Shown here: piece after piece, positions 32,820 to 53,786 of the stretch
Numbering within the stretch: the first letter of the stretch is position 1
Layout of the letters: every line of letters starts with the position of its first letter
NCBI GenBank assembly: GCA_028289445.1
Contig: JANQPO010000014.1
Location: 18,620 to 82,619, forward strand
DNA: 64,000 bases
Direction: 5' to 3'
Source: Tepidamorphaceae bacterium
GTDB lineage: Bacteria > Pseudomonadota > Alphaproteobacteria > Rhizobiales > JAKSCL01
Program-made: the position numbers and the translations under genes
Notes under the pieces: generated by a model
The model's database searches: none
Told to the model about the DNA's origin: nothing
Seen by the model: only the letters and a program-made list of their open reading frames with translations

Positions 32820-32834
32820 GCGACAGGACCGACA

Positions 32835-33788: not shown

Positions 33789-33802
33789 TCGGGAGAAAGA
33801 GC

Positions 33803-34966: not shown

Positions 34967-34979
34967 GTGCGGTCGGATC

Positions 34980-35945
34980 ATGCTGATCGTCACGGAGGAA
35001 ACGTGCCAAGAGGTTGTCGACCGGGCCGCCGCCTTTGACGCCGTTGAAAAGGTGTTCGGGGCGATGGCCCGGGGCGACGCCTACAATTTTCCGGTCATCC
35101 GCGAGGCCATCGGCCACGCCGACGCGCTTTACGGCTTCAAGTCTGGCTTTGATCGGGCGGGGCTCGTTCTGGGCCTGAAATCGGGCGGCTACTGGCCAGG
35201 GAATGCGGACAAGGGCCTGACCAATCACCAGTCGACGGTCGTACTGTTCGATCCAGACACGGGGCGACCGAAGGCGCTGGTTGGCGGTAATTATCTCACG
35301 GCCGTGCGCACCGCAGCGTCGTCGGCGATCTCGATCAAACACCTGTCACGCCCGGACTCAAAGGTGCTCGGGATGATCGGTGCCGGCCATCAGTCGACCT
35401 TCCAGATGCGAGCGGCGGCCGACCAGCGCGATTTCGAGCGCGTGATCGGCTGGAACCTGCATCCCGAGCAGCTGCCGCGCTTGGAGGCGACCGCCAAGGA
35501 GATCGGATTGCCATTCGAAGCCGTCGACCGAGACCGGCTGGGGGAAGAGGCCGACGTGATCATCACCATCACATCAAGCTTTGACGCGATCCTGATGAAA
35601 GATCAGATCAAGCCCGGCACTCATTTGGCCTGTATGGGGACCGACACGAAGGGCAAGAAAGAGGTCGATCCGACGCTGGTCGCCGCGGCGCGGGCGTTCA
35701 CAGACGAAATCGCCCAGTCGATCACGATCGGCGAGTGCCAGCATGCGGTTGCCGACGGGCTGATCTCCGAAGGCGACATCACCGAGATCGGCGCCGTGGT
35801 GAACGGCACCAAACCGGGCCGCACATCGGACGACGAAATCACGCTCTTCGATGGCACTGGGGTGGGGCTGCAAGACTTGGCGGCGGCCGCGGTCGCGGTC
35901 GAGCTTGCCGTCGAGCGCGGGGTCGCGGTGACCGTCGACGTCTGA
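34980..35945 (+). CDS. bhcD: iminosuccinate reductase
   Basis: Ornithine cyclodeaminase/mu-crystallin family: NFPVIRE, YGFKSG, LTAVRTAA and FDGTG. Confidence 0.9.
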   Translation: MLIVTEETCQEVVDRAAAFDAVEKVFGAMARGDAYNFPVIREAIGHADALYGFKSGFDRAGLVLGLKSGGYWPGNADKGLTNHQSTVVLFDPDTGRPKALVGGNYLTAVRTAASSAISIKHLSRPDSKVLGMIGAGHQSTFQMRAAADQRDFERVIGWNLHPEQLPRLEATAKEIGLPFEAVDRDRLGEEADVIITITSSFDAILMKDQIKPGTHLACMGTDTKGKKEVDPTLVAAARAFTDEIAQSITIGECQHAVADGLISEGDITEIGAVVNGTKPGRTSDDEITLFDGTGVGLQDLAAAAVAVELAVERGVAVTVDV

Positions 35946-36038: not shown

Positions 36039-37067
36039 ATGACAATTGGTGTCGGACTAGCGGGTTTCGGTCTTTCGGGACGGTTCCTGCATGCCCCGCT
36101 TATAAAGGCGGCAGGGATGGAGATTCGCGCCGTCGCCTCATCGCGCGTCGCCGATATCAGGGCGGATTTTCCAAACGCTGAACCGGTCGCCGATCTGGGC
36201 GGGCTTATCCTACGCGACGATGTCGATCTGGCGGTGCTCACGACGCCAAACGACCTTCATTACGCGCAAGCGAATGCGGCGTTAAAGGCGGGAAAGCACG
36301 TTGTTGTCGAAAAACCCTTTGTTCCAGCGGCAGATGAAGCCGACACGCTTATAGCGTTGGCGGAAAAGGAGAAACGCAAGCTCTCCGTCTACCACAATCG
36401 CCGATGGGACTCCGACTTCCTGACGATCCAGAAGCTCTTGGCGGAGCCCCGGCTTGGAACGGTTTATCGGTTTGCCATGCGCTGGGATCGGTTTCGGCCA
36501 GAGGTCCAAGACCGGTGGCGTGAGAAAGACGGTCCGGGCGCCGGGCTTCTCTATGACCTGGGCAGTCATATGATCGATCAGGCGCTACAACTGTTCGGCA
36601 TGCCGGACTGGCTGCAAGCGAATGTTGCCGCGCAGCGACCGGGCGCCGTCGTCGATGACGCTTTCGATATCCTGATGGGTAAGGGCGCTCTGCGCATCAG
36701 CCTGGGTGTCAGCTCAATCGCCGCCGACAATGCGCTCCGATATCGCGTGGATGGCGATGCGGGTTCGTTCGTGAAGTCCGGTCTCGACGTTCAGGAAGCG
36801 CAATTGCGGGCCGGTGAGGCGCCGGACACCGCCGACTTTGGAGTCGAGCCGGAAGCGCAATGGGGCACGTTCACAGATGACAATGGCGATCAACAAATCG
36901 TTCGTGCCGAGCGCGGATCATGGCTAACCTTCTATCGTCAGATGCGGAACGCGATCGAGAGCGACGAACCGGTCCCGGTCGACCCACGCTCTGCACGCGA
37001 TGTTATCGCTGTGATCGAGGCCGCGCGACAAAGCTCCGACGCCGGCAAGCGCGTGCCATTTCAATGA
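36039..37067 (+). CDS. Gfo/Idh/MocA oxidoreductase (YdgJ/IolW-like)
   Basis: GFGLSG..H.P, VEKP, YHNRRWDSDF and DLGSH motifs. Confidence 0.85.
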   Translation: MTIGVGLAGFGLSGRFLHAPLIKAAGMEIRAVASSRVADIRADFPNAEPVADLGGLILRDDVDLAVLTTPNDLHYAQANAALKAGKHVVVEKPFVPAADEADTLIALAEKEKRKLSVYHNRRWDSDFLTIQKLLAEPRLGTVYRFAMRWDRFRPEVQDRWREKDGPGAGLLYDLGSHMIDQALQLFGMPDWLQANVAAQRPGAVVDDAFDILMGKGALRISLGVSSIAADNALRYRVDGDAGSFVKSGLDVQEAQLRAGEAPDTADFGVEPEAQWGTFTDDNGDQQIVRAERGSWLTFYRQMRNAIESDEPVPVDPRSARDVIAVIEAARQSSDAGKRVPFQ

Positions 37068-37081
37068 CATGGTAACTCATC

Positions 37082-38722
37082 TTGCCTGATTACATCATCA
37101 TCGGTGGCGGCTCGGCTGGCTGCGTGCTCGCGAACCGGCTGTCGGAGGATCCAGACGTAACGGTCCTGCTTCTGGAGGCCGGTGGGCGCGATTGGCACCC
37201 GCTTGTCCATATCCCGGCCGGTTTCGCCAAGATGACGAAGGGCATCAATTCCTGGGGCTGGTCGACCGTGCCGCAGCGGCATGTGGGCGACCGTGTCTTC
37301 TGGTACACCCAGGCGAAGGTGCTGGGCGGCGGTTCGTCGATCAACGCGCAGATCTACACGCGCGGCAATGCAGCCGACTATGACGCTTGGGCGCGCGACC
37401 ACGACTGCGCCGGCTGGGGCTATCGTGAAGTCCTCCCATACTTCACGCGCGCTGAGGATAATCAGCGCTTCGCCAACGATTATCATGGAAGCGGCGGGCC
37501 GCTCGGCGTGTCGAACCCGATTGCGCCACTGCCGATCTGCGAAGCGTTTTTCCGTGCCGCGCAACAGGCCGGGTTGCCCTTCAACCCGGACTTCAACGGC
37601 CGCACCCAGGAAGGCGTCGGCTACTACCAACTCACCCAGCGTGGTGCCCGGCGGTCTTCGGCATCGGTGGCCTATCTGAAACCGGTTGAAAGGCAACGAC
37701 CCAATTTGACCATCCGCACGGGTGTCAGCACCACGCGCATTCTTGTCGAGAACCAGCGGGCCACCGGCGTAGAGATCTTCGGGTGCGACGGCGGAGATGC
37801 GAAGAGAATTGTCGCTGAACGCGCGGTGATTTCCGCTTGCGGGGCAATCGGTTCGCCGAAGCTCTTGATGCAGTCCGGTATCGGTCCGGCCGATCATCTG
37901 CGCGACGTTGGTGTTGACGTCGTGCATGACCTACCTGGGGTCGGCGGCAACCTGCAGGATCACGTCAATTTGTTCACGATCAGCGAATGCACCGGTGATC
38001 ATTCCTATGACGCCTATGCCAAGCTTCACCGCACGCTGTCGGCCGGCATACAATACCTTTTGCTTGGCACCGGACCCGCCGCGTCCAGTCTCTTTGAGAC
38101 GGGCGGGTTCTGGTATGCCGATCCGGCGGCACGCTCGCCGGACGTCCAATTCCATTTGGGTCTGGGATCCGGCATCGAGGCTGGTGTCATCAAGCTCGAC
38201 AATCCGGGTGTGACGCTCAATTCGGCCTATCTGCGGCCGAAATCGCGCGGTTCCGTGCGTTTGTCCAGCGCAGATCCATCGGTTGCTCCGCTGATCGATC
38301 CGAACTATTGGGCGGAGCCGGATGATCGGGCCTTGGCTTTCGAGGGGTTGAAGCTCGCACGCACCATTATGCGCCAGCCGGCGCTTGAAGCCTTCATCAA
38401 ACGCGAGATTTTGCCTGGCCCGGATGCGTTCAGCGACAATGACCTGTTCGCCTATGCCTGTAAGACCGCAAAGACGGATCATCATCCCGTCGGCACCTGC
38501 AAGATGGGCGTCGATGACTTGGCCGTCGTCGATCTGGATCTGAAAGTGCGCGGTCTGGAGGGGCTCTATGTTTGCGATGCCTCGGCGATGCCTCAGATCC
38601 CGTCATCCAACACCAATGCGCCGACCATCATGATCGGTGAGAAGGGTGCCGATCTGATCCGTGGCCGTTCGCCGTTGCCGCCGGCCGTGTTTGAAGGCAA
38701 CCTATCGCGCGAAGGCGAGTGA
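37082..38722 (+). CDS. GMC-family FAD oxidoreductase (sorbose dehydrogenase-like)
   Basis: GGGSAG, LGGGSSINA, HHPVGTC and NTNAP motifs. TTG start. Confidence 0.85.
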   Translation: MPDYIIIGGGSAGCVLANRLSEDPDVTVLLLEAGGRDWHPLVHIPAGFAKMTKGINSWGWSTVPQRHVGDRVFWYTQAKVLGGGSSINAQIYTRGNAADYDAWARDHDCAGWGYREVLPYFTRAEDNQRFANDYHGSGGPLGVSNPIAPLPICEAFFRAAQQAGLPFNPDFNGRTQEGVGYYQLTQRGARRSSASVAYLKPVERQRPNLTIRTGVSTTRILVENQRATGVEIFGCDGGDAKRIVAERAVISACGAIGSPKLLMQSGIGPADHLRDVGVDVVHDLPGVGGNLQDHVNLFTISECTGDHSYDAYAKLHRTLSAGIQYLLLGTGPAASSLFETGGFWYADPAARSPDVQFHLGLGSGIEAGVIKLDNPGVTLNSAYLRPKSRGSVRLSSADPSVAPLIDPNYWAEPDDRALAFEGLKLARTIMRQPALEAFIKREILPGPDAFSDNDLFAYACKTAKTDHHPVGTCKMGVDDLAVVDLDLKVRGLEGLYVCDASAMPQIPSSNTNAPTIMIGEKGADLIRGRSPLPPAVFEGNLSREGE

Positions 38723-38802: not shown

Positions 38803-38830
38803 TTGAAATAACCAATTAGTTACTTATAAT
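38803..38830 (+). promoter_or_regulatory. sigma70 promoter TTGAAA-N16-TATAAT with palindromic operator TAACCAATTAGTTAC filling the spacer
   Basis: Near-consensus hexamers. The operator recurs at 48654-48670. Confidence 0.75.
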
Positions 38831-38870
38831 CCAGCGCAACCAAAATTTGAGACCAGGGAGGCCCGCGCCA

Positions 38871-40370
38871 ATGGACGAGAAAGCGCCGATTCTATCTCTA
38901 CCGTCCGAGCCGCGCTCGTTCGGTTTCTTTGTCGAAGGCGCGTGGCTCGATGCCGGTGATCGTAAGATCATGGAGCGTGAAAGTCCCGCCCACGAGGTGC
39001 CGGTAACACGCATTCCGCTGTGCACTGCGGCCGATCTGGACCGCGCTGTCACGGCCGCGCGGGCGGCGTTCGAAGACCGGCGCTGGTCGGGTCTTTCAGG
39101 TGCTGAACGCGCCGCTGTATTGTCGAAGGCGGCCGCAGGCATTCGCGCCAGGGTCGATGAGTTGGCCTATTGGGAGACGCTTGAGAACGGCAAGCCGATT
39201 GCGCAGTCGCGCGGCGAGGTCGAGGGCGCCGCCGGCATCTACGACTACGCGGCCGGCGCGGCGCGGATGCTCCACGGCGATACGTTCAACAATCTCGGCG
39301 ATAAGATGTTGGGTCTGGTCACCCGCGAACCGATCGGGGTCGTTGGGCTCATCACGCCGTGGAATTTCCCGTTCTTTATCTTGTCGGAACGGGTGCCGTT
39401 CGTTCTGGCGGCCGGTTGCACGATTGTTGCGAAGCCGAGCGAGTTCACGTCGGCCACGTCCCTGATCATGGCGGATATCCTGGCCGACGCCGGTCTGCCG
39501 GCCGGTGTCTACAATGTCGTGCCCGGCCTGGGCGCAGAAGTTGGCCAAGCAATGACCGAGCATGCGGACATCGACATGGTGTCGTTCACCGGGTCGAGCC
39601 GCGTGGGGCGGAGCGCGATCCAGGCGGCGTCCGGCAACTTCAAGAAGCTCGGTCTGGAACTCGGCGGCAAGAATCCGCAGATCGTGTTCGCAGACGCCGA
39701 CCTAGACGATGCCGCCGACGGCGTCGCGTTCGGCCTGGCTTTCAACACCGGCCAATGCTGCGTGTCCGGCAGCCGACTCGTCGTCGAGGCGTCGATTGCC
39801 GACGATTTCACCGCACGATTGTCCGAGAAGCTGGCCAAGGTCAGGGTCGGCGATCCGCTCGACCCTGCGACGCAAGTCGGCGCCATCACCACGGACGCGC
39901 AGAACGCCACCATTCTCGACTACATCGCCGCCGGTCAGGCGGCCGGCGCGACGCTCGTGACCGGCGGCGCGTCCATCGATCGAGGAAAGGGCCGGTTCAT
40001 CGCGCCGACGCTCTTTGCCGGCGTCACCCGTGACATGACGATCGCCCGAGAAGAGATTTTCGGTCCGGTGCTCAGTGTCTTCCCATTCGCGACGCCGGAC
40101 GAGGCAATCGCAATCGCCAATGACACAAACTATGGCCTGGCAGCCAGCATTTGGACAAAGGACATTGACAAGGCGATCCAGACGTCCAGGCGCGTTCAGG
40201 CCGGTCGGGTGTGGGTCAACTGCACGATTACCGGCGGACCGGAATTGCCTATCGGCGGCTTCAAACAATCCGGCTGGGGCCGCGAGACCGGGATCTACGG
40301 GGTCGAGGAATACACCCAAATCAAGTCCGTCCACATCGAACTCGGCAAGCGCGATCCTTGGATCGCTTAG
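38871..40370 (+). CDS. NAD(P)-dependent aldehyde dehydrogenase (L-sorbosone dehydrogenase-like)
   Basis: PWNFP, FTGS, LELGGK, GQCC and EEIFGP motifs. Resembles Gluconobacter SNDH as I recall it. Confidence 0.85.
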   Translation: MDEKAPILSLPSEPRSFGFFVEGAWLDAGDRKIMERESPAHEVPVTRIPLCTAADLDRAVTAARAAFEDRRWSGLSGAERAAVLSKAAAGIRARVDELAYWETLENGKPIAQSRGEVEGAAGIYDYAAGAARMLHGDTFNNLGDKMLGLVTREPIGVVGLITPWNFPFFILSERVPFVLAAGCTIVAKPSEFTSATSLIMADILADAGLPAGVYNVVPGLGAEVGQAMTEHADIDMVSFTGSSRVGRSAIQAASGNFKKLGLELGGKNPQIVFADADLDDAADGVAFGLAFNTGQCCVSGSRLVVEASIADDFTARLSEKLAKVRVGDPLDPATQVGAITTDAQNATILDYIAAGQAAGATLVTGGASIDRGKGRFIAPTLFAGVTRDMTIAREEIFGPVLSVFPFATPDEAIAIANDTNYGLAASIWTKDIDKAIQTSRRVQAGRVWVNCTITGGPELPIGGFKQSGWGRETGIYGVEEYTQIKSVHIELGKRDPWIA

Positions 40371-40413
40371 GAGTGGACAACGGCCTTAGTGCCTGAAGGG
40401 AGTGAGACGCACC

Positions 40414-41997
40414 ATGGCAAAGCGCATGACGGCGGCGGAAGCGGCGAGGTTGATCGGCAACGGCGAGGTCGTTGCGGTCAACTCGTCGAGCGGTCTTTGC
40501 TGCCCCGACGCCGTGCTTGAGGCGATCGGCCAGCGTTTCCGTGAAACAGGTGCGCCTCGTGGCCTGACAACTGTCCATCCGATTGCAGCCGGCGACATGT
40601 TCGGAACCAAGGGCGTCGATCATATGGCGCAGGAGGGCCTCATCTCGACGATCATCGGCGGGTCCTATCCCTCCGGTCCGTCGTCGTCCGAACCGCCGCT
40701 GATCTGGCAAATGCTTCTCGACAATCGGGTTGCCGCCTACAATGTCCCGAGCGGTATCGTTTTCGATGCCCTGCGCGAAGCGGCTGGCCTTCGTCCCGGT
40801 GTGATGACCAAGGTGGGTCTCGATACGTTCGTCGATCCTGACCAGGACGGCTGTGCGATGAACGATGCGGCACGCCAAAAGCCCATCGTCAAGAAGATCG
40901 ACTTTGAGGGTGAGGAATGGCTCTACTTTCCTGCGATTAAGCCTGATGTCGCAATCATCCGTGCCACGACAGCCGATGAGCGCGGCAATCTCACCTTCGA
41001 GCAAGAGGGCGCCTATTTGGGAGCCATGGAGCTGGCGCTTGCGGCTCACAATTGCGGCGGGCGGGTGATCGCGCAGGTGCGCCGTGTCGCCGAGGCCGGC
41101 ACGCTCAAGCCTCACGATGTGCGCGTGCCCGGCATCCTTGTCGATGCTATTGTTGAAGCGCCTGAAATGCTTCAAACGACGGCAACCGCGTACGATCCGG
41201 CCATCTCGGGCGAACTCTTCAGGCCCTTGAACAGCTTCAAGATGCCCGAATTCGATGCCGCTAAGGTCATCGCCAGGCGCGTTGCGGTGGAGCTTGAAAA
41301 AGGCTGGGCGGTCAACATCGGGTTCGGCATCTCGGCCAATGTGCCGCGCATCTTTCTGGAAGAGGGGCGGCACGGTGATGTCACCTGGGTGATCGAGCAG
41401 GGCGCGGTAGGCGGTATCCCGCTGCTTGATTTCAAGTTCGGCTGCGCATCGAACGCCGAAGCCTTCGTCGCATCGCCCCACCAGTTCAGCTACTTTCAAG
41501 CGGCGGGCTTCGATGCCTCGCTGCTTTCGTTCCTTCAGATCGACCGGAATGGGTCGGTGAACGTTTCAAAGCTCTCGGCACGGCCGCACGTCACCGCCGG
41601 CGCGGGCGGCTTTGTCGACATTACCGCACGGGCAAAGAAGATCGTCTTTTCTGGCTATTTCAACGCCGCCGCCAAGCTGGCGGTCGAAGACGGCCAACTC
41701 AAGATCAACAAGGAAGGCAAGGTTGCCAAGCTTGTCGATGAAGTCGAGCATGTGTCGTTTTCCGGCCGGCGGGCGGTCGCACAGGGCCAGGACGTCACCT
41801 ACGTCACGGAGCGATGCGTCATGCGGTTGACGCTCGAGGGGCCGACGGTGATCGAGGTCGCGCCCGGTGTCGACATTGATCGCGACATTCAGGGCCAGTC
41901 GGAAATTCCGCTCAAGATCGCGTCGGATGTCCGGCCGATGAACGCGGCGTTGTTTCAGCCCGCGTGTTTCGGGCTGGGTGCGGGCAGTGTGCAATGA
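40414..41997 (+). CDS. acyl-CoA:acetate/3-ketoacid CoA transferase (YdiF/Pct-like, fused alpha-beta)
   Basis: TKVGLDTFVDP, TTADERGN, EQG (catalytic Glu), GGFVDI and VTERCV motifs. Confidence 0.88.
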   Translation: MAKRMTAAEAARLIGNGEVVAVNSSSGLCCPDAVLEAIGQRFRETGAPRGLTTVHPIAAGDMFGTKGVDHMAQEGLISTIIGGSYPSGPSSSEPPLIWQMLLDNRVAAYNVPSGIVFDALREAAGLRPGVMTKVGLDTFVDPDQDGCAMNDAARQKPIVKKIDFEGEEWLYFPAIKPDVAIIRATTADERGNLTFEQEGAYLGAMELALAAHNCGGRVIAQVRRVAEAGTLKPHDVRVPGILVDAIVEAPEMLQTTATAYDPAISGELFRPLNSFKMPEFDAAKVIARRVAVELEKGWAVNIGFGISANVPRIFLEEGRHGDVTWVIEQGAVGGIPLLDFKFGCASNAEAFVASPHQFSYFQAAGFDASLLSFLQIDRNGSVNVSKLSARPHVTAGAGGFVDITARAKKIVFSGYFNAAAKLAVEDGQLKINKEGKVAKLVDEVEHVSFSGRRAVAQGQDVTYVTERCVMRLTLEGPTVIEVAPGVDIDRDIQGQSEIPLKIASDVRPMNAALFQPACFGLGAGSVQ

Positions 41998-42782
41998 GCG
42001 GATCGCCGGACCCGCGCCTGTCTCTGAAGATCGATGGCCCCATCGCTCTTTTGACCATCGACCGGGCAGACAAGCTGAATGCGCTCGACGATCAAATGGT
42101 GGAGGCACTTGGTGCGCACTGCCGCGCGATCGAGAGAAATGATGTTGTGCGGGTGGCGATTATCACCGGCGCTGGGGACAAGGCGTTTTCGGCCGGTGGT
42201 GACATCGATGCTTGGAGCGCGAATGCGCCGGAAGACTTTAGCCGCTTCTGGGTCCGCGAAGGACATGAGGCCTTCTCGGCGTTGGCCCGATTGCGCCAGC
42301 CGGTCATCGCGGTTTTGAACGGCCACGCACTGGGTGGCGGCTTTGAGTTGGCTGCCGCCGCCGATCTGCGGATCGCGGAGGATCATGTCAAGATCGGTCA
42401 GCCCGAGGCAGGGCTCGGCATCATACCGGGCTGGTCCGGAACGCAGCGGGCCGTTCGCCGGTTTGGATCGCAGATCGTTCGTCGCATGGCGTTGTTCGGC
42501 GACGTGTTCGACGCCAATGAGGCGCTGACGCACGGATTGGTCGACAGCGTGGTGGAAAAGGGAAGGGGCCTTGAGCGTGCGCGCGAGATCGCGGCGGTTG
42601 TCGCCAAGCGAGGACCCCGAGCAACCGAACTGACAAAGATGCTGATCAATGCCGCGGAGGGGGAAGAGCGCGAGCGCATCTTGGAATCCCTCGCCGGTGG
42701 ACTGGCAGCCTCATCTCAGGAGCTTAAAGAAGGGATCGTGGCGTTTCGCGCCAAGCGGCCGCCGGACTTCGGTGAAACGTGA
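41994..42782 (+). CDS. enoyl-CoA hydratase/isomerase
   Basis: FSAGGD, GGGFE and PEAGLG motifs. ATGA overlap. Confidence 0.88.
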   Translation: MSGSPDPRLSLKIDGPIALLTIDRADKLNALDDQMVEALGAHCRAIERNDVVRVAIITGAGDKAFSAGGDIDAWSANAPEDFSRFWVREGHEAFSALARLRQPVIAVLNGHALGGGFELAAAADLRIAEDHVKIGQPEAGLGIIPGWSGTQRAVRRFGSQIVRRMALFGDVFDANEALTHGLVDSVVEKGRGLERAREIAAVVAKRGPRATELTKMLINAAEGEERERILESLAGGLAASSQELKEGIVAFRAKRPPDFGET

Positions 42783-42787
42783 ACGGA

Positions 42788-43822
42788 TCAGTCGTCGCGG
42801 AACATTGGAACAGGCTGGTCGATCCATTGCAGTTCGGCCATGTCGGCGCCGTCGATGCGCTTGAGGATCACATCTCCCAGCTTGCGCGCCGCCGCGACCA
42901 AGTCTTCTTCAATCATATCAATCGCCGGCCGCATCTGGTCGAAAATCGGCGTGGTCCGCTTTGCGACAACGTCCACGTCTTCGCCGATCGCGAGGCCGCC
43001 GTCGACAATCGCAGCCATCACCGCCATCGCCGAGACCTCGCCACCGCACACCAAGCCATCCGCGTTGCCTGCGGAAAATCGGGAGAGGGCGAACCGACGC
43101 ACCTCTTCGGGCGGGCTCTCGATCGTCAGGTCGGGCGCCACCTCAAAGGCGACGCCGCTCTCTCGGATCGCTGACATGAAGCCGTGGCGCATGTGTTGGG
43201 AGAACGTGTAGGCCGGCGGCGCGTTGATCAGGACCAGCTTGCGCCGGCCTTTCTCGATCAGTCTCTTTGTTGCCAGATAGGCGAACTGGTAGTTATCGTA
43301 ATCGACGAAGGGATGCGAAGTGGCGAGTTCGGTGCGCCCGTGACTGACGAACGGGAAGTCGTGTTCGAGCAGCAGTTTGACACGCGGGTCCAGCGGCTCG
43401 GTGCGGGCGAAAATTATTGCGTCAGCGAGACGGTTTCTCAGGATATGACGGACCGGGTTCACCGGGTCCTCACCCTCGAAGTTTGGCATGACGACCAAGT
43501 GATATGGCGTGTTGCGCAGCACGGCCGCCAAACCGGCGATCATCGACGTGCCGAACCCGATGATCTCCTCGTGGGGCGCCAGAACGAAGCTTATGACGTT
43601 GGTTCGTCCGGTCCTGAGCCGCTGCGCGGCGCGATCCGGCACGTAACCGATCTGATTGGCGACGGCGCGGACGCGGGCGCGGGTCTCCTCGGCGATCTCC
43701 GGCGCATCTTTCAGTGCCCGCGACACCGTCGTGACGGCCAGGCCGGTCGCCGTCGCGATCGTCTTCAGCGTCGGCTTCTCGACCAGTCCCGTTGTCGGCG
43801 AGGCGGATTTTTGTCCAGGCAT
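42788..43822 (-). CDS. LacI-family regulator
   Basis: TLKTIA..TGLAVTTVSRAL HTH. Divergent from the ABC operon. Confidence 0.88.
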   Translation of the reverse strand: MPGQKSASPTTGLVEKPTLKTIATATGLAVTTVSRALKDAPEIAEETRARVRAVANQIGYVPDRAAQRLRTGRTNVISFVLAPHEEIIGFGTSMIAGLAAVLRNTPYHLVVMPNFEGEDPVNPVRHILRNRLADAIIFARTEPLDPRVKLLLEHDFPFVSHGRTELATSHPFVDYDNYQFAYLATKRLIEKGRRKLVLINAPPAYTFSQHMRHGFMSAIRESGVAFEVAPDLTIESPPEEVRRFALSRFSAGNADGLVCGGEVSAMAVMAAIVDGGLAIGEDVDVVAKRTTPIFDQMRPAIDMIEEDLVAAARKLGDVILKRIDGADMAELQWIDQPVPMFRDD

Positions 43823-43859
43823 GTTCAACTCGGGTCGCCAGTGTCACTGAACAGAAGAT

Positions 43860-43877
43860 ATTTGCAACGTTACAAAT
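43860..43877. promoter_or_regulatory. LacI operator ATTTGCAACGTTACAAAT
   Basis: Near-perfect palindrome with central CG. Paired with 43990-44005. Confidence 0.7.
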
Positions 43878-43989
43878 GTGCAAGGGGATGGATAAAATTC
43901 GTTGTGAGTTGATAATCTCATAAAAAATCGATAAAAAACAATACGATACAAGGTTATAGAATTATGAATGCTCTCTTGACGAATAGTAG

Positions 43990-44005
43990 TTTGTAACGTT
44001 ATAAA
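43990..44005. promoter_or_regulatory. LacI operator TTTGTAACGTTATAAA overlapping a putative -10 (with -35 TTGACG at 43976)
   Basis: Near-perfect palindrome similar to the site at 43860. Confidence 0.7.
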
Positions 44006-44067
44006 TCACGATTAGATTCCCGATCACGACATATGTGCTCGCGGAATGGTTCAAAAGGGAGGAACAC

Positions 44068-45321
44068 ATGACAACGTTTCGTGCAGCGAAATATCTGGCT
44101 GGGGTGGCAGTCGTCGCCTTGTCGGCGGTTAGCGCGCAGGCTGAGGAAAGCGTCGAAGTCCTGCACTGGTGGACGTCAGGTGGCGAGGCCGCCGCGTTGG
44201 ACGTTCTCAAGAAGGATTTGGAATCCAAGGGTGTGAGCTGGGCCGATATGCCGGTTGCCGGCGGTGGGGGTGAGCAGGCCATGACCGCCTTGCGCGCCCG
44301 CGTCACGGCCGGCAATGCGCCGACCGCCGTCCAGATGCTCGGCTTCGATATTCTCGACTGGGCCAAGGAAGGCGCGCTCGGCAATCTGAATGAGGTTGCC
44401 GCCGCCGAGGGCTGGGACAGTGTCGTACCGACGGCGTTGCAGGGCTTCGGCAAGTATGACGGCAACTGGATTTCGGCCCCGGTCAATGTCCACTCGACCA
44501 ACTGGGTGTGGATCAGCAAATCCGCGCTCGACGCGGCTGGTGGCAAGGCGCCGGAGTCTTGGGACGAACTCGTCGCCGTGCTCGACAAGATGCAGGAGAA
44601 CGGGCTGACCGCGCTCGCCCATGGCGGTCAGGCCTGGCAGGACGCGACCATCTTCGATGCCGTCGTGCTGTCGCTCGGCACCGACTTCTACAAGGCGTCG
44701 ATGATCGATCTCGATCCGGCGGCGCTCGGGGGCGACCAGATGGTCGAAGCCTTCGACCGGATGTCGAAGCTGCGCTCCTATGTCGACGATAACTTCTCCG
44801 GTCGCGACTGGAACCTGGCGTCCGCGATGGTGATCGAGGGCAAGGCCGGTATGCAGATGATGGGCGACTGGGCCAAGGGCGAGTTCCTTAAAGCCGGGCA
44901 GGTGCCGGGCCAGGACTTCGTCTGCATCCGGTTCCCGGGCACGCAGGGTGCCGTGACCTTCAACTCCGACCAGTTCGCCATGTTCAAGGTCGGCGACGAT
45001 CGCACCGGACCGCAAAAGCTGATGGCGTCGGCGATCATGAGCCCGACCTTCCAGTCGGCGTTCAACGTCGTGAAAGGCTCCGTTCCGGCGCGCACGGATG
45101 TCCCGAACGATGCCTTCGACGATTGCGGCAAGAAGGGCATGGTCGACCTGGCCGATGCTAATTCAAGCGGCACGCTCTATGGCTCCATGGCCCACGGCCA
45201 TGCGGCGCCGGCTGCGGTCAAGAACGCCGTTTATGACGTCGTGACCCGGCACTTCAACGGCGAGCTTTCGAGCCAGGAAGCCGTCGAAGAACTCGCCGCC
45301 GCCATCGACGCGGTCAAGTAG
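44068..45321 (+). CDS. sugar ABC substrate-binding protein (glucose/mannose GtsA-like)
   Basis: Signal peptide, [19 protein letters not shown] and SMAHG motifs. Confidence 0.88.
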
Positions 45322-45333
45322 GACTTCCTCCTA

Positions 45334-45390
45334 GCGCATCGGGCAATTGGCCCGGTGCGCCAAGAACCGGGGCGGGGATCAACCTCGCCC
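45334..45390 (+). other. two GC hairpins between SBP and permease genes
   Basis: GCGCATCGGGC/GCCCGGTGCGC and GGGGCGGGG/CCTCGCCCC. Confidence 0.55.
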
Positions 45391-45417
45391 CAACAACGAT
45401 CGGCCAGGGGGCGCGCC

Positions 45418-46293
45418 ATGAAGGAGCGGTTGCAGGAACTCACGCCGAAGCTGGTGCTTTCGCCGAGCTTCTTCCTGATCCTGTTCTTCGTCTACGGCTT
45501 CATCGTCTACACCGGCTACCTGTCGATGACCGACTCGAAGATGCTGCCGTCCTATGGCTGGGTTGGGCTCGACAATTACGAGCGCCTTTGGAAGCTGCCG
45601 CACTGGAAGCGATCGCTGAACAACCTGGCGGTCTTCGGGATTCTCTACATTGTCGTCTGTACGGTGCTCGGCTTGCTCGCTGCGATCCTGCTCGATCAGA
45701 AGATCCGCGCGGAAGGCCTGCTGCGGCCGATTTATCTGTACCCGATGGCGCTGTCGTTCATCGTGACGGGAACCGCCTGGAAGTGGTTCCTGGACCCCGG
45801 CATCGGCCTCGAAAACACCATCCATCAATGGGGCTGGGAGACCTTCTCCTTCGATTGGATCAAGAACCGCAATTACGCGATTTATACGGTTGTGATCGCC
45901 GCCGTGTGGCAATCCTCGGGCTTCGTCATGGCTATGTTCCTGGCGGGGCTGCGCGGTGTTGACAACGAGATCATCAAAGCGGCTCAGATCGACGGGGCGT
46001 CGACCGTGCGCATCTACCGCCGCATCATCATTCCGCTCATGCGGCCGGTGTTTCTTTCCGCTTTCGTCGTTCTCGCGCACTTGGCGATCAAGGCCTACGA
46101 CTTGGTCATTGCGCTGACCGGCGGTGGGCCTGGTCAGGCGACGGAACTGCCGGCGACCTTCATGTATTCCTACACGTTCACGAGGAACCTGATGGGGATC
46201 GGTGCGTCGTCGGCGATCATCATGCTCATCATGATCTTTTCCATCATCATTCCCTACCTTTATTCGGAACTGAGAGGAGGGAAGACGCAATGA
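45418..46293 (+). CDS. sugar ABC permease
   Basis: TM segments and KAAQIDGAS motif. Confidence 0.9.
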   Translation: MKERLQELTPKLVLSPSFFLILFFVYGFIVYTGYLSMTDSKMLPSYGWVGLDNYERLWKLPHWKRSLNNLAVFGILYIVVCTVLGLLAAILLDQKIRAEGLLRPIYLYPMALSFIVTGTAWKWFLDPGIGLENTIHQWGWETFSFDWIKNRNYAIYTVVIAAVWQSSGFVMAMFLAGLRGVDNEIIKAAQIDGASTVRIYRRIIIPLMRPVFLSAFVVLAHLAIKAYDLVIALTGGGPGQATELPATFMYSYTFTRNLMGIGASSAIIMLIMIFSIIIPYLYSELRGGKTQ

Positions 46294-47171
46294 GCCAGCC
46301 CTCCGCCGACGTGGCCGTCCAAACCAACCGGCTCGTGCGCATCGCGATCTATACGGCACTGATTGTTCTCGCGGTCTACTACCTGCTGCCGTTTTACGTG
46401 ATGGTGGTGAACTCGCTGAAGCCGCTCGACGAAATCCGCGAGGGCGACATGCTGGCCCTGCCGCGCCAATGGACCATCGCGCCCTGGCTCTCGGCGTGGT
46501 CGACGGCCCAGATCGGCGTCGAGCCCACGGGCCTGCGCCCTTACTTCATGAACTCGATATTCATGGTGGTTCCAGCGGTCGCATTGTCGACCATTCTTGG
46601 CGCCCTCAACGGCTATGTGCTGACTAAGTGGCGCTTCCCGGGCCACAACCTGGTGTTCGGCATGATGCTTTTGGCCTGCTTCATTCCCTTCCAGATCGTC
46701 CTCATCCCGATGGCGCGCGTGCTCGGTATTCTAGGGCTTGCCGGCACGACCTGGGGCTTGGTGCTCGTCCACACGGTTTACGGTCTGGGCTTCACGACAC
46801 TGTTCTTCCGCAACTACTACGAGGCCTTCCCGACTGAGCTTGTGCGCGCCGCGCAGATCGACGGTGCTTCCTTCTTCCAGATCTTCCGGCGCATCCTGTT
46901 GCCGTCTTCGGGACCGATCATCGTCGTCACCGTGATCTGGCAGTTCACCAATGTGTGGAACGACTTCCTGTTCGGCGCGTCGTTCGCCGACGTCGACTCC
47001 GTGCCGATGACGGTCGCCCTCAACAATCTCGTCTCCTCGTCGACGGGCGTGAAAGAATACAACGTCCACTTTGCCGGCGCGATCCTCGCAGCGTTGCCGA
47101 CCCTCATCGTCTACGTCGTCTCCGGACGCTATTTCGTGCGCGGCCTGATGGCTGGCGCCGTGAAGGGATAG
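46290..47171 (+). CDS. sugar ABC permease
   Basis: RAAQIDGAS and GLMAGAVKG motifs. Confidence 0.9.
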   Translation: MSQPSADVAVQTNRLVRIAIYTALIVLAVYYLLPFYVMVVNSLKPLDEIREGDMLALPRQWTIAPWLSAWSTAQIGVEPTGLRPYFMNSIFMVVPAVALSTILGALNGYVLTKWRFPGHNLVFGMMLLACFIPFQIVLIPMARVLGILGLAGTTWGLVLVHTVYGLGFTTLFFRNYYEAFPTELVRAAQIDGASFFQIFRRILLPSSGPIIVVTVIWQFTNVWNDFLFGASFADVDSVPMTVALNNLVSSSTGVKEYNVHFAGAILAALPTLIVYVVSGRYFVRGLMAGAVKG

Positions 47172-47176
47172 TCACC

Positions 47177-48292
47177 ATGGCCTTTCTCGAAATCCGCAAC
47201 TTGATGAAGTCCTTCGGCAATGTGGATGTGCTGAAAGGCATCAATATCGAAATCGAGGAGGGCGGCTTCTTGGTTCTCGTTGGGCCGTCGGGCTGCGGCA
47301 AGTCGACGCTTCTGAACACCATTGCGGGCCTTGAGGCGATCACCAGCGGCGACATCAGCATTGGCGGCCGCTCCGTGGCGGGGTTGCACCCGTCGAAGCG
47401 CGATATCGCCATGGTGTTCCAAAGCTATGCGCTTTATCCGAACATGACGGTCGCGCAGAACATCGGCTTCGGCATGGAAATCCGCGGCATTGGCCAGACC
47501 GATCGCGACAAGGCAATTGCTGACGTCTCCGAGCTTTTACAGATCGGCCATTTGCTCGACCGCAAGCCGTCGCAGCTTTCCGGCGGTCAGCGCCAGCGTG
47601 TTGCCATGGGCCGTGCACTTGTTCGCGAACCGCAGGTGTTTCTGTTCGACGAGCCGCTGTCGAACCTCGATGCCAAGCTGCGGGTTGACATGCGCACTGA
47701 GATCAAACGGCTACATCAGCGCATGGGCACGACGATCGTTTACGTCACGCACGACCAGATCGAGGCGATGACGCTTGCGACCAAGATCGCGGTCCTCAAA
47801 GACGGCATTCTTCAACAGTTCGGCTCGCCGGCCGAAATCTACAACGACCCGGCCAATATGTTCGTCGCCGACTTCATGGGGTCGCCCTCCATGAACCTCA
47901 TCCCGGCGCGGATCGAGACCGAAGGGAACGGTGTGGCCGTAGTCATCTCCAAGCGCGGCGGTGGCGAAGCGGTGCGCCTTCCTGTCGAGAATGCCAATGG
48001 TCTGACCGCCCATGCCGGTGCTGATGTTATCTTCGGGATCCGGCCGGAAGCGCTGACCGATCCTGACGGCGCCGACCGCACCGGCGGCGGACTGGTCAAT
48101 GCTGTTTGTCCGATCGAGGTCGTTGAGCCGGCCGGCTCCGATACGTTCGCCGTCACGCATCTGGGCGACATCGAGGTGACGGCCAGGCTTCGCGCGGATG
48201 CCGCGATCGAACCCGGCCGCGAGGAGACGCTAACCTTCAATATGACCAAGGCCGTGTTCTTCGATCCGAAAACCGAGAGCCGCATCGCATGA
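47177..48292 (+). CDS. sugar ABC ATPase (MalK/UgpC-like)
   Basis: GPSGCGKST, VFQSYALYP, LSGGQRQR and DEPLSNLD motifs. Confidence 0.92.
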   Translation: MAFLEIRNLMKSFGNVDVLKGINIEIEEGGFLVLVGPSGCGKSTLLNTIAGLEAITSGDISIGGRSVAGLHPSKRDIAMVFQSYALYPNMTVAQNIGFGMEIRGIGQTDRDKAIADVSELLQIGHLLDRKPSQLSGGQRQRVAMGRALVREPQVFLFDEPLSNLDAKLRVDMRTEIKRLHQRMGTTIVYVTHDQIEAMTLATKIAVLKDGILQQFGSPAEIYNDPANMFVADFMGSPSMNLIPARIETEGNGVAVVISKRGGGEAVRLPVENANGLTAHAGADVIFGIRPEALTDPDGADRTGGGLVNAVCPIEVVEPAGSDTFAVTHLGDIEVTARLRADAAIEPGREETLTFNMTKAVFFDPKTESRIA

Positions 48293-48600
48293 TCCGGCAC
48301 GTTGTCCTCTTGCGCTTTGCCGACGGCGTTTCAGCCTCGGACAAACAGGCGCTTTACGACGCGCTTGCGGCGCTGCGCGAGCACATCGCGGGGATCGTCG
48401 ACTTTCGGGCTGGCCCGAATGTCAGCGTCGAAGGGCCCCTCACACAGGGCTTCGACGATGGGTTCTGGTTCGATTTCGAGAACGCTGGCGTGCGCGACGC
48501 CTATCTGGTTCACCCGGAACACCAGGCCGTCGGCGCCCGTATTGTCGAGGCGACCAAGGACGGTCTCGACGGCGTTTTGGTCTTCGATTTCGAGCTATAA
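48289..48600 (+). CDS. Dabb (stress-responsive A/B barrel) protein
   Basis: IRHVVLLRF, GPNVS.E and YLVHPEH motifs. Confidence 0.85.
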   Translation: MIRHVVLLRFADGVSASDKQALYDALAALREHIAGIVDFRAGPNVSVEGPLTQGFDDGFWFDFENAGVRDAYLVHPEHQAVGARIVEATKDGLDGVLVFDFEL

Positions 48601-48653
48601 ACCAATCACGTGAGCGGGACGTTTGCTTGACCTTGAGGGCAGTGTTTGTTAAA

Positions 48654-48671
48654 AAGTAACTAATTGGTTAC
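48654..48671. promoter_or_regulatory. operator AAGTAACTAATTGGTTAC (TetR-like palindrome)
   Basis: 48654-48670 is the exact reverse complement of 38809-38825. It follows a putative TTGACC-N17-TAAAAA promoter. Confidence 0.75.
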
Positions 48672-48699: not shown

Positions 48700-49479
48700 G
48701 TGACGGATACGAATCCTCACGCCGCCTTTGTCACCGGCGCCAGTCGCGGTATCGGTCTCGGTGTCGCCTTGGCCCTTGCCGACAAGGGGTTTGCCGTCGC
48801 GCTGAATGCGCGCGAAGGGAGCGAAGAACTCAAGGAGGCATGCCGCGCCGTTGAAGAGCGCGGGGTCAAGGCTGTCGCGGTTGCTGGCCATGTCGATGAT
48901 ATCGGCAATCACACGGCCATGCTGGACCGTGCGGAGGCGAAAATCGGTCCGCTGTCGACGCTGGTTAACAATGCCGGCGTCTCGGTGCTGAGCCGTGGCG
49001 ATCTTCTCGATGCGTCGGAGGACAGCTACGACCGCTGCATGGCGGTGAACGCCAAGGCCCTGTTCTTTCTCTCGCAGGCTTTCGCCAAACGGCTTGTTTC
49101 GCGCGACCGCGACGACGGTCGAGCCTACAGCATCGTCAATGTGACGTCCGCGAACGCGGCGGCTGCCGCCATAAATCGCGGCGAATACTGTGCGTCCAAA
49201 GCGGCGGCCGCGATGATCTCGAAAGTCTTCGCGGCACGGCTCGGCGGGGAGGGGATCGCTGTCTACGATGTGCAACCGGGCCTGATTGAAACAGCGATGA
49301 CGGCGGGCGTCAGCGACGATTATCGCCGTCGCGCCGAAGCCGGACTGACGCTTATCCCGCGCCTGGGCCAACCGGACGATATCGGTCAGGTCGTCGCCAC
49401 GCTTGCCGCCGGCGGGCTTCCCTACACGACCGGGCAGGTCGTTTCCGCCGATGGCGGGATGCTCCTCTCGCGCTTTTAG
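48700..49479 (+). CDS. SDR oxidoreductase (3-ketoacyl-ACP reductase-like)
   Basis: TGASRGIG, NNAG and YCASK motifs. GTG start after AAGGGAG. Confidence 0.85.
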   Translation: MTDTNPHAAFVTGASRGIGLGVALALADKGFAVALNAREGSEELKEACRAVEERGVKAVAVAGHVDDIGNHTAMLDRAEAKIGPLSTLVNNAGVSVLSRGDLLDASEDSYDRCMAVNAKALFFLSQAFAKRLVSRDRDDGRAYSIVNVTSANAAAAAINRGEYCASKAAAAMISKVFAARLGGEGIAVYDVQPGLIETAMTAGVSDDYRRRAEAGLTLIPRLGQPDDIGQVVATLAAGGLPYTTGQVVSADGGMLLSRF

Positions 49480-49489
49480 GTCGCCGCCG

Positions 49490-50638
49490 ATGCACATCCG
49501 CCTACCCGACGAAACTGGCGCTTTTAGCGACTACGCCCTCATCGGAACGCCGATTAACGCCGCACCGCTTAGTGCAGATCCCGTTCGCACCGTGTTTTCC
49601 GCCGCGCATGTCGTCGCCGACCCGTTCACCGGCAACGATCCCTCCGGTCCGGCGACTGTCGATTGGGAGGCGACGATGGCGTTTCGGCGTCATTTGGCAG
49701 GTCTCGGTCTGGGTATCGCCGAAGCGATGGACACGGCACAGCGCGGCATGGGACTGGACTGGCCAGGCGCGCTGAAGTTGATCCGCCGCACCAGGGCTGA
49801 GCTACCGGACGCCCTGGTCTTCAACGGCGCCGGGACGGATCACCTCGATCCGGCAGACGCGCAGTCGCTGGATGATGTGCGCCGTGCCTATGATGAGCAG
49901 CTTTCGGCGATCCAGAGCATCGGCGGTCGCATCATCCTAATGGCCAGCCGCGCCTTGGCGCGGGTTGCGTCCGGACCGGACGACTATATCTCCGTCTACC
50001 GTGATGTTCTGGCGAACGCTGATGAACCCGTCGTTCTGCATTGGCTGGGTGATATGTTCGATCCGGCGCTTGCGGGATATTGGGGCGCGGACGATTTCGA
50101 ATCGACTCTAGAGACTTGCCTCCAAGTCATTGAGGAAAATGCAGAAAAAGTTGATGGCATCAAGATCTCGTTGCTCGATAAGGACAAAGAGATCGTCATG
50201 CGTCGACGCCTGCCGAACGGCGTGAAGATGTATACGGGAGACGACTTCAACTATCCCGAACTGATTGCCGGCGACGATCAACGCTATTCTCACGCATTGC
50301 TCGGCATTTTCGATCCGCTGGCGCCGGCCGCCGCCCATGCCATCGCGCAGTTGGGTGCAGGCGACGTGACCGGTTTCCGCGCGACTCTCGATCCGACGGT
50401 GCCACTGGCGCGTCTGATCTTCCGCGCTCCGACGCAATACTATAAGACCGGTGTCGTTTTCCTCGCGTGGTTGAACGGCTTCCAGGATCACTTTGTCATG
50501 CTGGGTGGAGCACAGGCGATGCGGCCACTCCCATATTTCGTCGAAACGTTCAAATTGGCTGACGCGTGCGGGCTGCTGCGCGATCCGGATCTGGCCGTCG
50601 AACGGATGAAAAAGCTACTCGCGATCTACGGCGTTTGA
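49490..50638 (+). CDS. DUF993 / dihydrodipicolinate synthase-like protein
   Basis: AAHVVADP, AEAMDTAQRGMGLDW, HWLGDMFDP, GIKISLLD and YTGDDFNY motifs. Confidence 0.8.
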   Translation: MHIRLPDETGAFSDYALIGTPINAAPLSADPVRTVFSAAHVVADPFTGNDPSGPATVDWEATMAFRRHLAGLGLGIAEAMDTAQRGMGLDWPGALKLIRRTRAELPDALVFNGAGTDHLDPADAQSLDDVRRAYDEQLSAIQSIGGRIILMASRALARVASGPDDYISVYRDVLANADEPVVLHWLGDMFDPALAGYWGADDFESTLETCLQVIEENAEKVDGIKISLLDKDKEIVMRRRLPNGVKMYTGDDFNYPELIAGDDQRYSHALLGIFDPLAPAAAHAIAQLGAGDVTGFRATLDPTVPLARLIFRAPTQYYKTGVVFLAWLNGFQDHFVMLGGAQAMRPLPYFVETFKLADACGLLRDPDLAVERMKKLLAIYGV

Positions 50639-50642
50639 GCCG

Positions 50643-51503
50643 ATGCGCGACTTCTCAAACGATCATTCCGCCCTGGCGCTCAATACGGCGACGCTGGGTC
50701 ACAACGTCGATGGCCATGGCGCGGGCTGGTCGCCTGAGCGAGTGATCGATGCCTGCGCGGCGCGTGGGTTTGGCGCCATCACCTATTGGCGGCGGGAGAT
50801 CGGCGATCGCGCGGTTGACATCGGCGAGCGAACGCGCGCGGCCGGCCTGTCCGTGTCGGGGTTATGTCGGACGCCGTTCCTTGTGGGACCATTGGCCCCG
50901 CCAACGCGTGCGGCGGTGATCGACGATTTCAAGGCTTCGATCGACATGACGGCGGACCTGGAAGCGACCTGCCTCACGATCGTCGTCGGCGGCGTGATCG
51001 AAGGGTCTCACAGCCTGACGGAAAGTTTGAAAGCGGTCGCCGATATCGTGGCGGAGATGGCATCGCGCGCTCAGCAGGGCAATGTCAAATTGGCGCTCGA
51101 ACCCTTGAATCCCGTCTATGGTGGCAATCGCTCCTGTTTGGTTACCGTGCGAGACGCGGTCGATCTGTGCGACGCCATCGACAACCCCGCTGTCACCATC
51201 GCCGTCGATGTTTATCACGTGTGGTGGGACCTCTCGCTGGCGACGGAACTGAAGCGCGCCGGCAGTGCGCGGATCGCCGGATATCACCTGTGCGATTGGC
51301 TTGCCGACACGACCGATGTGTTGCTCGATCGCGGCATGATGGGCGACGGTGTCGCCGATTTGAAGGCGATCCGTGAAGCTGTTGAAGGAGCAGGCTATTC
51401 CGGGTTCTGCGAGGTCGAGATTTTTTCGGCGAACGATTGGTGGAAACGCGATCCGGGCGAAGTTCTGGATACCTGCGTGGAGCGCTTCCGCACCGTTTGC
51501 TAG
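50643..51503 (+). CDS. sugar phosphate isomerase/epimerase (xylose-isomerase-like TIM barrel)
   Basis: LEPLNP, DVYHVWWD, HLCDW, DRGMMGDG and EVEIFS motifs. Confidence 0.8.
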   Translation: MRDFSNDHSALALNTATLGHNVDGHGAGWSPERVIDACAARGFGAITYWRREIGDRAVDIGERTRAAGLSVSGLCRTPFLVGPLAPPTRAAVIDDFKASIDMTADLEATCLTIVVGGVIEGSHSLTESLKAVADIVAEMASRAQQGNVKLALEPLNPVYGGNRSCLVTVRDAVDLCDAIDNPAVTIAVDVYHVWWDLSLATELKRAGSARIAGYHLCDWLADTTDVLLDRGMMGDGVADLKAIREAVEGAGYSGFCEVEIFSANDWWKRDPGEVLDTCVERFRTVC

Positions 51504-52733: not shown

Positions 52734-53786
52734 ATGCTTAAAAAGCGGCCGACCATTCGCGACGTGGCTCTGGAGGCCGGTGTCTCGGCCGCCACGGTAT
52801 CGAATGTGCTCAATCGGCGCCGCAACGTCGACGCTGCGATCGCCAAACGCGTACACGCGGCAGTCGATTCCCTTGGCTACCGGGTCGATGCGGTGGCGGC
52901 CAACTTGCGCCGCACAAGGGCACGTCTTGTTGGCCTTGTCGTGCCGGATTTTCAGAATCCCTTTTTTGGCGAACTCATCGGGCACATGGAACGCTTGGCG
53001 GAAGCGGACGGCTATCGCCTGGCTGTCATGTCCAGCCACGAAGACAGCGCCGTCGAAACGGCGCGGATCGAGGCGCTGACAGACTGGCGTGCAGCGGGTC
53101 TGATCCTTGTTCCGGTCCTGGGTGAGTTCGCGTCGCGAGGTGCCATAGAGGAGGCCGGTTTCCCGACCGTATTTCTCGATCGTATTGACCCAGGCATTAC
53201 TTGCGATTCCGTCCTCGTGAACAATGCCGCGATCGCCGGCATGGCACTTGAGCACTTGGCCAAAGCTGGGCATCGACACGTCCTCATTGCCGCCTCTGAT
53301 CGCAACGTGCCCAATATGGCGGAACGGGTTGGTGGGGCATTGGACGCCGCTGAAGTTCACGCGATCGCTGATGCAGTTGAGGTCTTGGACTGTGGTGCAA
53401 CAAGCGATGCCATCGGGGAGGCCATCGCGGCTCGCCTGGCAATGACACCGCGCCCGACGGCGGTGCTGACTCTCTTCAATATAGCGACGCTGGAGACGCT
53501 GCGGGCCGTCCATCGCCTCGGCCTGACTATTCCGAACGATATGTCTGTGGTGGGGTTCGACGATTACGCCTGGATGGAGGTGACCAACCCTCCGCTGACG
53601 GCGGTATCGCAACCTATTGAAGAAATGGCACGGGTGGCGTGGGCGCGCCTCGCGACCCGGCTGGATGGCACAGATGTGCCGCCCGAGACCTTGCGCGTGC
53701 CATGCGTGCTGATCGAGCGCCAATCGGTGGCGCCGCCGACCTTAAACACTGTCGAGATGTCGAGCGCGGGGACGCTCGAAACATGA
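52734..53786 (+). CDS. LacI-family regulator
   Basis: TIRDVALEAGVSAATVSNVLN, NPFF and GFDD motifs. Confidence 0.9.
   Translation: MLKKRPTIRDVALEAGVSAATVSNVLNRRRNVDAAIAKRVHAAVDSLGYRVDAVAANLRRTRARLVGLVVPDFQNPFFGELIGHMERLAEADGYRLAVMSSHEDSAVETARIEALTDWRAAGLILVPVLGEFASRGAIEEAGFPTVFLDRIDPGITCDSVLVNNAAIAGMALEHLAKAGHRHVLIAASDRNVPNMAERVGGALDAAEVHAIADAVEVLDCGATSDAIGEAIAARLAMTPRPTAVLTLFNIATLETLRAVHRLGLTIPNDMSVVGFDDYAWMEVTNPPLTAVSQPIEEMARVAWARLATRLDGTDVPPETLRVPCVLIERQSVAPPTLNTVEMSSAGTLET

Follow-up and report, generated by a model that had tools for sequence, protein, structure and literature searches.

Two copies of a 17-bp motif point to a probable, remotely encoded TetR-family repressor of a divided catabolic gene cluster in a Tepidamorphaceae bacterium

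In the TetR/tetO system, a regulator with a TetR_N helix-turn-helix is encoded divergently from its target operon, an efflux pump, and its operators are 16-bp palindromes with half-site centres 11 bp apart that lie on promoter elements in the shared intergenic region. A second arrangement is represented by KstR/KstR2 of actinobacteria, in which one TetR repressor acts on many dispersed catabolic operators. Some TetR-family proteins act as activators. Here, we analysed a 64,000-nucleotide stretch of the genome of a Tepidamorphaceae bacterium (hereafter the window; C3:18620-82619, where C3 is contig JANQPO010000014.1), in which a 17-bp motif occurs twice, each time in front of a block of catabolic genes. 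The data suggest that both 17-mers are very probably operators of a single TetR-family repressor (TetR_N + PF17938), encoded outside the window on another contig (C21:122986-123618).

The predicted system shares with TetR/tetO the TetR_N helix-turn-helix, the 16-bp palindrome with its 11-bp spacing of half-site centres, operators placed on promoter elements, and a regulator gene that diverges from a target operon, the intergenic region between them containing a site. It differs from TetR/tetO in its ligand domain, TetR_C_29 (PF17938), in that catabolic enzymes and an importer are targeted rather than an efflux pump, and in having at least five predicted operators in two unlinked loci. As with KstR/KstR2, a single TetR repressor would join separate catabolic units, some of them far from its own gene, by one palindrome, whereas the ligand domain and the motif are unrelated, the regulon is much smaller, and the chemistry would be of a sugar-like/CoA kind and not directed at steroids; KstR2 was a weak PDB match of the C21 protein (E 4e-6). 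NCBIfam and PDB searches with this protein yielded just weak RutR-like, ScbR-like or structural-genomics matches. RutR, the pyrimidine-utilisation TetR protein of E. coli, provided the best NCBIfam name (TIGR03613) and a weak PDB match, and this identity was rejected, since the score was 52 bits where the cut-off is 368, and no rut genes are nearby. BP1026B_II1561 of Burkholderia pseudomallei has the same TetR_N + PF17938 architecture and belongs to a different gene set; the passage that describes it gives no operator (PMC11358695). The operator of PA3973 of P. aeruginosa, as given in the passage that treats it, is a different palindrome (PMC9736018). A full-text literature search on PF17938/TetR_C_29 found nothing related in function beyond one unrelated paper.

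The sequence TAACCAATTAGTTACTT is present on the forward strand at window 38809-38825 (site 1), and site 2, at 48654-48670, is its exact reverse complement; the initial annotation of this DNA had placed both there. The whole assembly (3,947,861 bases in 26 contigs, 61% G+C, all searched) holds the exact 17-mer just twice, both times in the window, and shuffling the window 100 times with dinucleotides preserved gave no match with up to three mismatches, which bears out the earlier judgement that a chance recurrence is unlikely. The core of the 17-mer is the near-palindrome TAAC-N6-GTTA; site 1 reads TAAC-N6-GTTAC, and site 2 carries the full GTAAC-N6-GTTAC core at 48656-48671. The two sites are alike over 17 bases only, with flanking similarity stopping there, and within these bases they match each other even at the variable, non-consensus central positions.

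Both sites precede the genes that had been named for them, as determined by Pfam: aldehyde dehydrogenase (ALDH), CoA-transferase and hydratase follow site 1, and a short-chain dehydrogenase/reductase (SDR), a DUF993 protein and a xylose-isomerase-like TIM barrel protein (TIM) follow site 2. Site 1 had been said to fill the spacer of a TTGAAA/TATAAT promoter. It does lie in that promoter, but its limits are slightly different, since the 17-mer spans the 16-nt spacer and also the T that opens the -10 box. When site 1 was aligned with the ALDH/CoA-transferase upstream regions of nine loci from relatives, only the operator was kept. Site 2 was aligned with the upstream regions of the acyl-CoA dehydrogenase (ACAD) genes of seven genomes, and only AGTAAC...GTTAC was invariant. 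Some 23 nt before the operator, these ACAD upstream regions carry a TTGAC-like -35, and a TTGACC stands about 23 nt ahead of the site 2 core; from this likeness we infer a promoter at site 2.

Sites from eight relatives (31 in total, none of them from this genome) were combined into a matrix of 24 positions, with which the assembly was scanned. Site 1 was the best match in the genome, and the next two were found in the AKR1/ACAD intergenic region on C21, ahead of site 2; a site in the TetR/importer intergenic region on C21 and one on contig C14 followed (Table 1), and all other scores in the genome were at most 16.9 bits. The window contained no further site above 10 bits. The two C21 sites at AKR1/ACAD, 93 bp apart, were also the next-best mismatched matches of the 17-mer itself. 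They lie between the AKR1-MaoC-AKR2 unit and the divergent ACAD gene, and the ACAD site overlaps the -10 box of a promoter-like TTGACG-18 nt-TAAAGT. The genome-wide scan that had been proposed for the 17-mer has thus confined its exact copies to the two window sites, and the mismatched matches and the matrix have added the C21 sites. When the 40 nearest genomes were searched for exact copies of GTAACYAATTRGTTA, no match outside this genome was obtained; the central bases vary, so that a looser core was needed. With TAACYANNTRGTTA, all 15 genome-wide matches in five complete or near-complete relatives were inside the cluster described below, and the motif can therefore pick out pathway genes.

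No TetR gene is present in the window, in agreement with the initial annotation: the 12 genes of the genome with TetR_N above its cut-off all lie elsewhere, and the window itself has a sub-threshold TetR_N match of 20 bits at 29134-29196. The C21 gene encodes 211 amino acids, with a TetR_N domain over residues 18-62, which scores 50.1 bits for a cut-off of 24, and a TetR_C_29 domain over residues 86-204, with 144.7 bits for a cut-off of 26.2, and a genome-wide profile search found it to be the only PF17938 gene of this genome. It is divergent from an ABC importer-ADH-cupin-GMC operon, which runs toward the AKR/MaoC/ACAD genes about 10 kb off, and it is orthologous, at 66-72% identity, to the TetR gene of the cluster in relatives. 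The earlier proposal of one regulon under a remote TetR protein has gained a candidate in this lone PF17938 gene, which lies beside the rest of the cluster and three further sites and can now be linked to the two window operons.

A sample of 301 genomes from the same order was examined for conservation, and 88 of these contained CoA-transferase homologues (E ≤1e-60). About 19.5 kb around the best CoA-transferase match was taken from 20 genomes, and the window and C21 proteins were mapped on it. Seven of the 20 loci (TetR-type) held ALDH, GMC, AKR2, CoA-transferase, hydratase, Dabb, MaoC, AKR1, ACAD, SDR, DUF993 and TIM together, and CoA-transferase orthologues in cluster-bearing relatives were 68-79% identical. 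The other 13 (LacI-type) held a paralogous gene set beside LacI genes and an SBP_bac_1 importer, namely a CoA-transferase together with a hydratase (about 50-58% identical), an ALDH (about 50%) and a DUF993 protein (about 56-63%). GTAAC-N6-GTTAC, with one mismatch at most, had 18 matches in the seven TetR-type loci, all intergenic, and one match in the 13 LacI-type loci; the TetR-type sites were in the AKR1/ACAD and AKR2/CoA-transferase intergenic regions and upstream of ALDH. In the order exemplified by L099 (L, G and C labels denote loci, genomes and contigs, respectively), the relatives' layout is TetR / binding protein-permease-ATPase-permease-Zn-ADH-cupin-ALDH-GMC / AKR2 / CoA-transferase-hydratase-Dabb / MaoC-AKR1 / ACAD-SDR-DUF993-TIM.

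Within 9 kb of the cluster, Pfam revealed no shared regulator in seven relatives, one locus having a MarR gene. Once the flanks were widened, a TetR_N + TetR_C_29 gene was found beside the cluster in three genera, in two of them with a site directly upstream. Across the eight mapped relatives, the TetR gene adjoins the orthologous cluster in seven and the transporter half of it in the eighth, and the motif is kept upstream of orthologous genes in all eight; both the expected TetR neighbour and the expected conservation were thus found. TetR homologues at 61-72% identity were detected in 13 genomes of the 301-genome sample besides this one (the next best match was 53% identical). All eight mapped cluster genomes were among these 13, and none of the genomes with a LacI-type locus alone was.

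In a wider survey of named genomes, Paracoccus versutus DSM 582, Ruegeria marina and Labrenzia sp. DG1229 among them, at least 559 relatives of this TetR protein were detected, the best 80 of which (70-84% identical) came from Rhodobacterales, Hyphomicrobiales and other Alphaproteobacteria. A site of at least 15 bits was present no more than 450 bp upstream of the TetR start in 60 of the 78 among these 80 that had enough upstream DNA. Most of the TetR-upstream sites (L103-L182) demonstrated a conserved asymmetric variant, in which one half is a perfect GTTAC and the other is degenerate and fixed. This variant is maintained across Rhodobacterales and Hyphomicrobiales and is the same as the TetR/importer site of this genome; such a site may be weaker than the others or may accommodate two dimers. 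Paralogues of about 50% identity in other genomes also adjoin GTAAC-N6-GTTAC sites, and the helix-turn-helix GARVD.IA....NKRM.YHY is invariant across the orthologues and these paralogues. Because the paralogues share both sites and helix-turn-helix, the motif, judged from sequence comparison, belongs to the PF17938 subfamily, which has one member in this genome.

From what is known of TetR-family repressors, a dimer of the C21 protein would bind GTAAC-N6-GTTAC, in which the half-site centres 11 bp apart would be reached from one helix face. Bound at site 1, between the -35 and -10 of the ALDH/CoA-transferase/hydratase promoter, or at site 2, over the -10/+1 region before SDR/DUF993/TIM, the repressor would block RNA polymerase, and a pathway metabolite would release it. 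On C21, the regulon would include the AKR1/MaoC/AKR2 unit, the ACAD gene, and the divergent pair of TetR and ABC-importer-ADH-cupin-GMC. What the sequences themselves show is the sites, their conservation at orthologous promoters and specificity within genomes, the promoter overlap at site 1 and at ACAD, the gene content and the tie of one TetR gene to the gene set; binding, repression, ligand and substrate are proposed. As such, the system would be ordinary TetR operator control of an uncharacterised pathway.

Several observations weigh against this assignment. The consensus promoter scan made no call at site 2 or in the TetR/importer intergenic region, and the site in the latter is asymmetric and reaches 23.0 bits only. 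Eighteen of the 78 orthologues had no upstream site of at least 15 bits. The matrix training sites had first been located with a pattern from this genome, so that only their positions, not their core, are independent. A reversed-pattern control in the five relatives gave 7 sites compared to 15, which makes the location of the matches telling and not their count. The motif is family-wide, so the motif alone does not single out one protein. A look-alike of 21.7 bits lies on C14, on the promoter of an unrelated ArsR-type gene (L002:4842-5210) with an AHSA1/SRPBCC gene behind it. This look-alike is probably the own site of the ArsR-type regulator, although cross-talk with the TetR protein is conceivable.

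That ArsR-type protein, one of the window LacI proteins or the window IclR protein might be the regulator for which all the sites are operators, which we regard as improbable. Genes for two LacI proteins (42788-43828 and, as a second one, 52734-53786) and for IclR (30533-31411) are indeed in the window, and the LacI boxes share the GTAAC/GTTAC half-words, joined without spacer around a central CG. In relatives, however, the motif travels with the TetR gene and not with LacI or IclR, and a scan of 14 LacI-type loci, in which paralogous genes are LacI-controlled, yielded no site of at least 15 bits in 266,139 bases. The LacI-box pattern occurs in the window only at 43861 and 43990, and the 6-bp spacer of the 17-mer does not fit it, in line with the earlier remark that the 17-mer is unlike the LacI boxes between its two copies. 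The 17-mer was also considered as a LacI-family operator in its own right and rejected, with the LacI-box pattern lying elsewhere and the LacI-linked paralogous loci being free of a 17-mer-type site.

The C21 protein could also bind the sites as an activator or dual regulator, to which we assign a similarly small chance. Activation has precedents in the family, among which LuxR of Vibrio is cited in a passage of PMC9736018, and no promoter was called at site 2; on the other side, site 1 lies in the spacer of a promoter with 11 of 12 consensus matches and the ACAD site lies over a -10 box, positions at which a bound protein occludes RNA polymerase. Least probable, and hardly to be expected, is that the identity of the two 17-mers is a remnant of local duplication or rearrangement with no regulatory role. 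The locus is clearly rearranged, and identity at non-consensus central bases fits copying, but the similarity stops at 17 bases, in several genera the motif is kept at orthologous promoters whose flanks have diverged, and the sites sit precisely on promoter elements. Repression by the TetR protein encoded on C21 accordingly remains the reading that we prefer, with the features on which it bears collected in Table 1.

Table 1. Coordinates of genes, predicted operators and related elements (window positions unless a contig or locus label is given)
Feature	Position	Strand	Basis or remark
Gfo/Idh/MocA oxidoreductase	36039-37067	+	Pfam
GMC oxidoreductase	37082-38722	+	Pfam
Sigma-70-like promoter of ALDH-CoA-transferase-hydratase operon	38803-38830	+	TTGAAA-16 nt-TATAAT, 11/12 consensus matches; 0.2 expected in shuffles
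Operator site 1 (predicted)	38809-38825	.	17-mer in promoter spacer; matrix window 38804-38827 (24 nt), 35.4 bits, genome best
Aldehyde dehydrogenase (ALDH)	38871-40370, ORF from 38847	+	Aldedh, E 9e-173; likely ATG 38871 after AGGGAGG
Fused family-I CoA-transferase, 531 aa	40402-41997	+	Pfam CoA_trans; FadX-like below cut-off
Enoyl-CoA hydratase (crotonase)	41964-42782, start uncertain	+	ECH_1, E 1.6e-49
LacI-family regulator	42788-43828	-	LacI HTH + Peripla_BP_3
Two LacI-type boxes	43861-43876, 43990-44005	.	LacI/SBP intergenic region
SBP_bac_1-type ABC importer (binding protein, two permeases, MalK-like ATPase)	44035-48292	+	Pfam; adjoins LacI boxes
Dabb (stress-responsive A/B barrel)	48289-48600	+	Pfam
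Operator site 2 (predicted)	48654-48670	.	17-mer inverted; 31.2 bits, fourth in genome
Short-chain dehydrogenase/reductase (SDR)	48700-49479	+	Pfam; PRK12745 above cut-off
DUF993 protein	49496-50638, ORF from 49403	+	E 2.4e-181; sole DUF993 gene in genome
Xylose-isomerase-like TIM barrel (TIM)	50643-51503	+	AP_endonuc_2
AKR1/ACAD intergenic region	L001:5343-5479 (C21)		two predicted sites, 32.9 and 32.3 bits
TetR/importer intergenic region	L066:8620-8832 (C21)		predicted site L066:8724-8747, 23.0 bits
Look-alike site before ArsR-type regulator gene	C14:180823-180846 (L002:4824-4847)		21.7 bits

Compared to the relatives, the gene set of this genome is divided, as if their one cluster had been broken up over two contigs. 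C21 retains TetR, importer, ADH, cupin, GMC, AKR2, MaoC, AKR1 and ACAD; the ALDH-CoA-transferase-hydratase and SDR-DUF993-TIM blocks are in the window (C3). The distances to the nearest contig ends (57 kb + 123 kb) put at least about 180 kb between the loci, unless these are on different replicons. The SDR gene lies downstream of ACAD with no promoter of its own in the relatives; here, it has its own operator. Each relocated unit carries an operator, and the regulon would thus have survived the break-up. The identity of the two window sites at the variable central bases suggests that, during the rearrangement, one may have arisen as a copy of the other or both may derive from a shared source. 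A second split, independent of this one, was observed in genome G040, in which 528 kb of one chromosome separate TetR, importer and GMC from the enzyme genes (L101, L049), and both halves have sites. The predicted regulon outlives the gene cluster, here and in G040: moved operons keep or copy the operator, and the repressor stays with the transporter genes.

The LacI regulator between the two blocks is outside the TetR regulon and is part of an inserted transporter module. Of the LacI-type version of the pathway, this genome holds the LacI gene and the importer only, amid TetR-type genes. The order of the genes suggests that the LacI-controlled importer was inserted between the hydratase and Dabb genes, which fits because Dabb lies directly 3' of the hydratase in two relatives (L047, L099), the LacI gene and importer intervening here. 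The LacI-type version itself is present in many relatives (L039, L042-L046, L048, L050-L055, L102).

Enzyme similarities provided some indication of the pathway. NAD(P) L-sorbosone dehydrogenase (PDB 7w5l, E 1e-225) is closely related to the window ALDH, the match being very strong, the GMC enzymes of the cluster resemble choline and alcohol oxidases, and ACAD is nearest to the acryloyl-CoA reductase and cyclohexanecarboxyl-CoA dehydrogenase models, with scores below their cut-offs. No NCBIfam name was found for the DUF993 and TIM-barrel proteins, and a full-text literature search on DUF993/PF06187 found no paper. These family assignments suggest that a sugar-like compound may be imported, oxidised to an acid and then processed as a CoA ester. 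The G040 cluster also contains a DUF4147/MOFRL (glycerate-kinase-type) gene (L049:6779-8074), which hints at glycerate as an end product.

We tentatively consider, as a possibility that is not the likelier one, that in each genome the operator marks the complete gene set of an as yet undescribed catabolic route with a wide distribution among marine and soil Alphaproteobacteria. If so, the oxidation steps would be carried out by a polyol dehydrogenase, a GMC oxidase and the sorbosone-dehydrogenase-like ALDH, and the CoA-thioester steps by the CoA-transferase, the acyl-CoA dehydrogenase, hydratases, SDR, DUF993 and the TIM-barrel enzyme, and DUF993 would gain a first pathway context. A LacI-gated second importer would then have been spliced into a TetR regulon, with two uptake systems feeding one enzyme set. 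The motif is a simple and specific handle for the pathway genes, even in fragmented clusters. To specialists in bacterial regulation, these findings will be unsurprising in themselves; they are of note for a regulon kept through break-up and for the marking of a widespread, unstudied pathway.

Some neighbouring genes were also recorded. The Gfo/Idh/MocA-GMC pair (36039-38722) stands directly before site 1 without an operator of its own, and GMC orthologues in G102 (L058:1702-3303) and G045 (L056:13349-14950) have a site in front. The MarR gene and UbiX-/UbiD-type decarboxylase genes abut the cluster in G047 (L036:1985-3314), in this relative only. In the window, the IclR gene is divergent from a separate, amino-acid-type catabolic unit (whole region 30533-35945) that encodes a class-V aminotransferase, a PLP-dependent enzyme, and D-serine-dehydratase-like and ornithine cyclodeaminase-like proteins.

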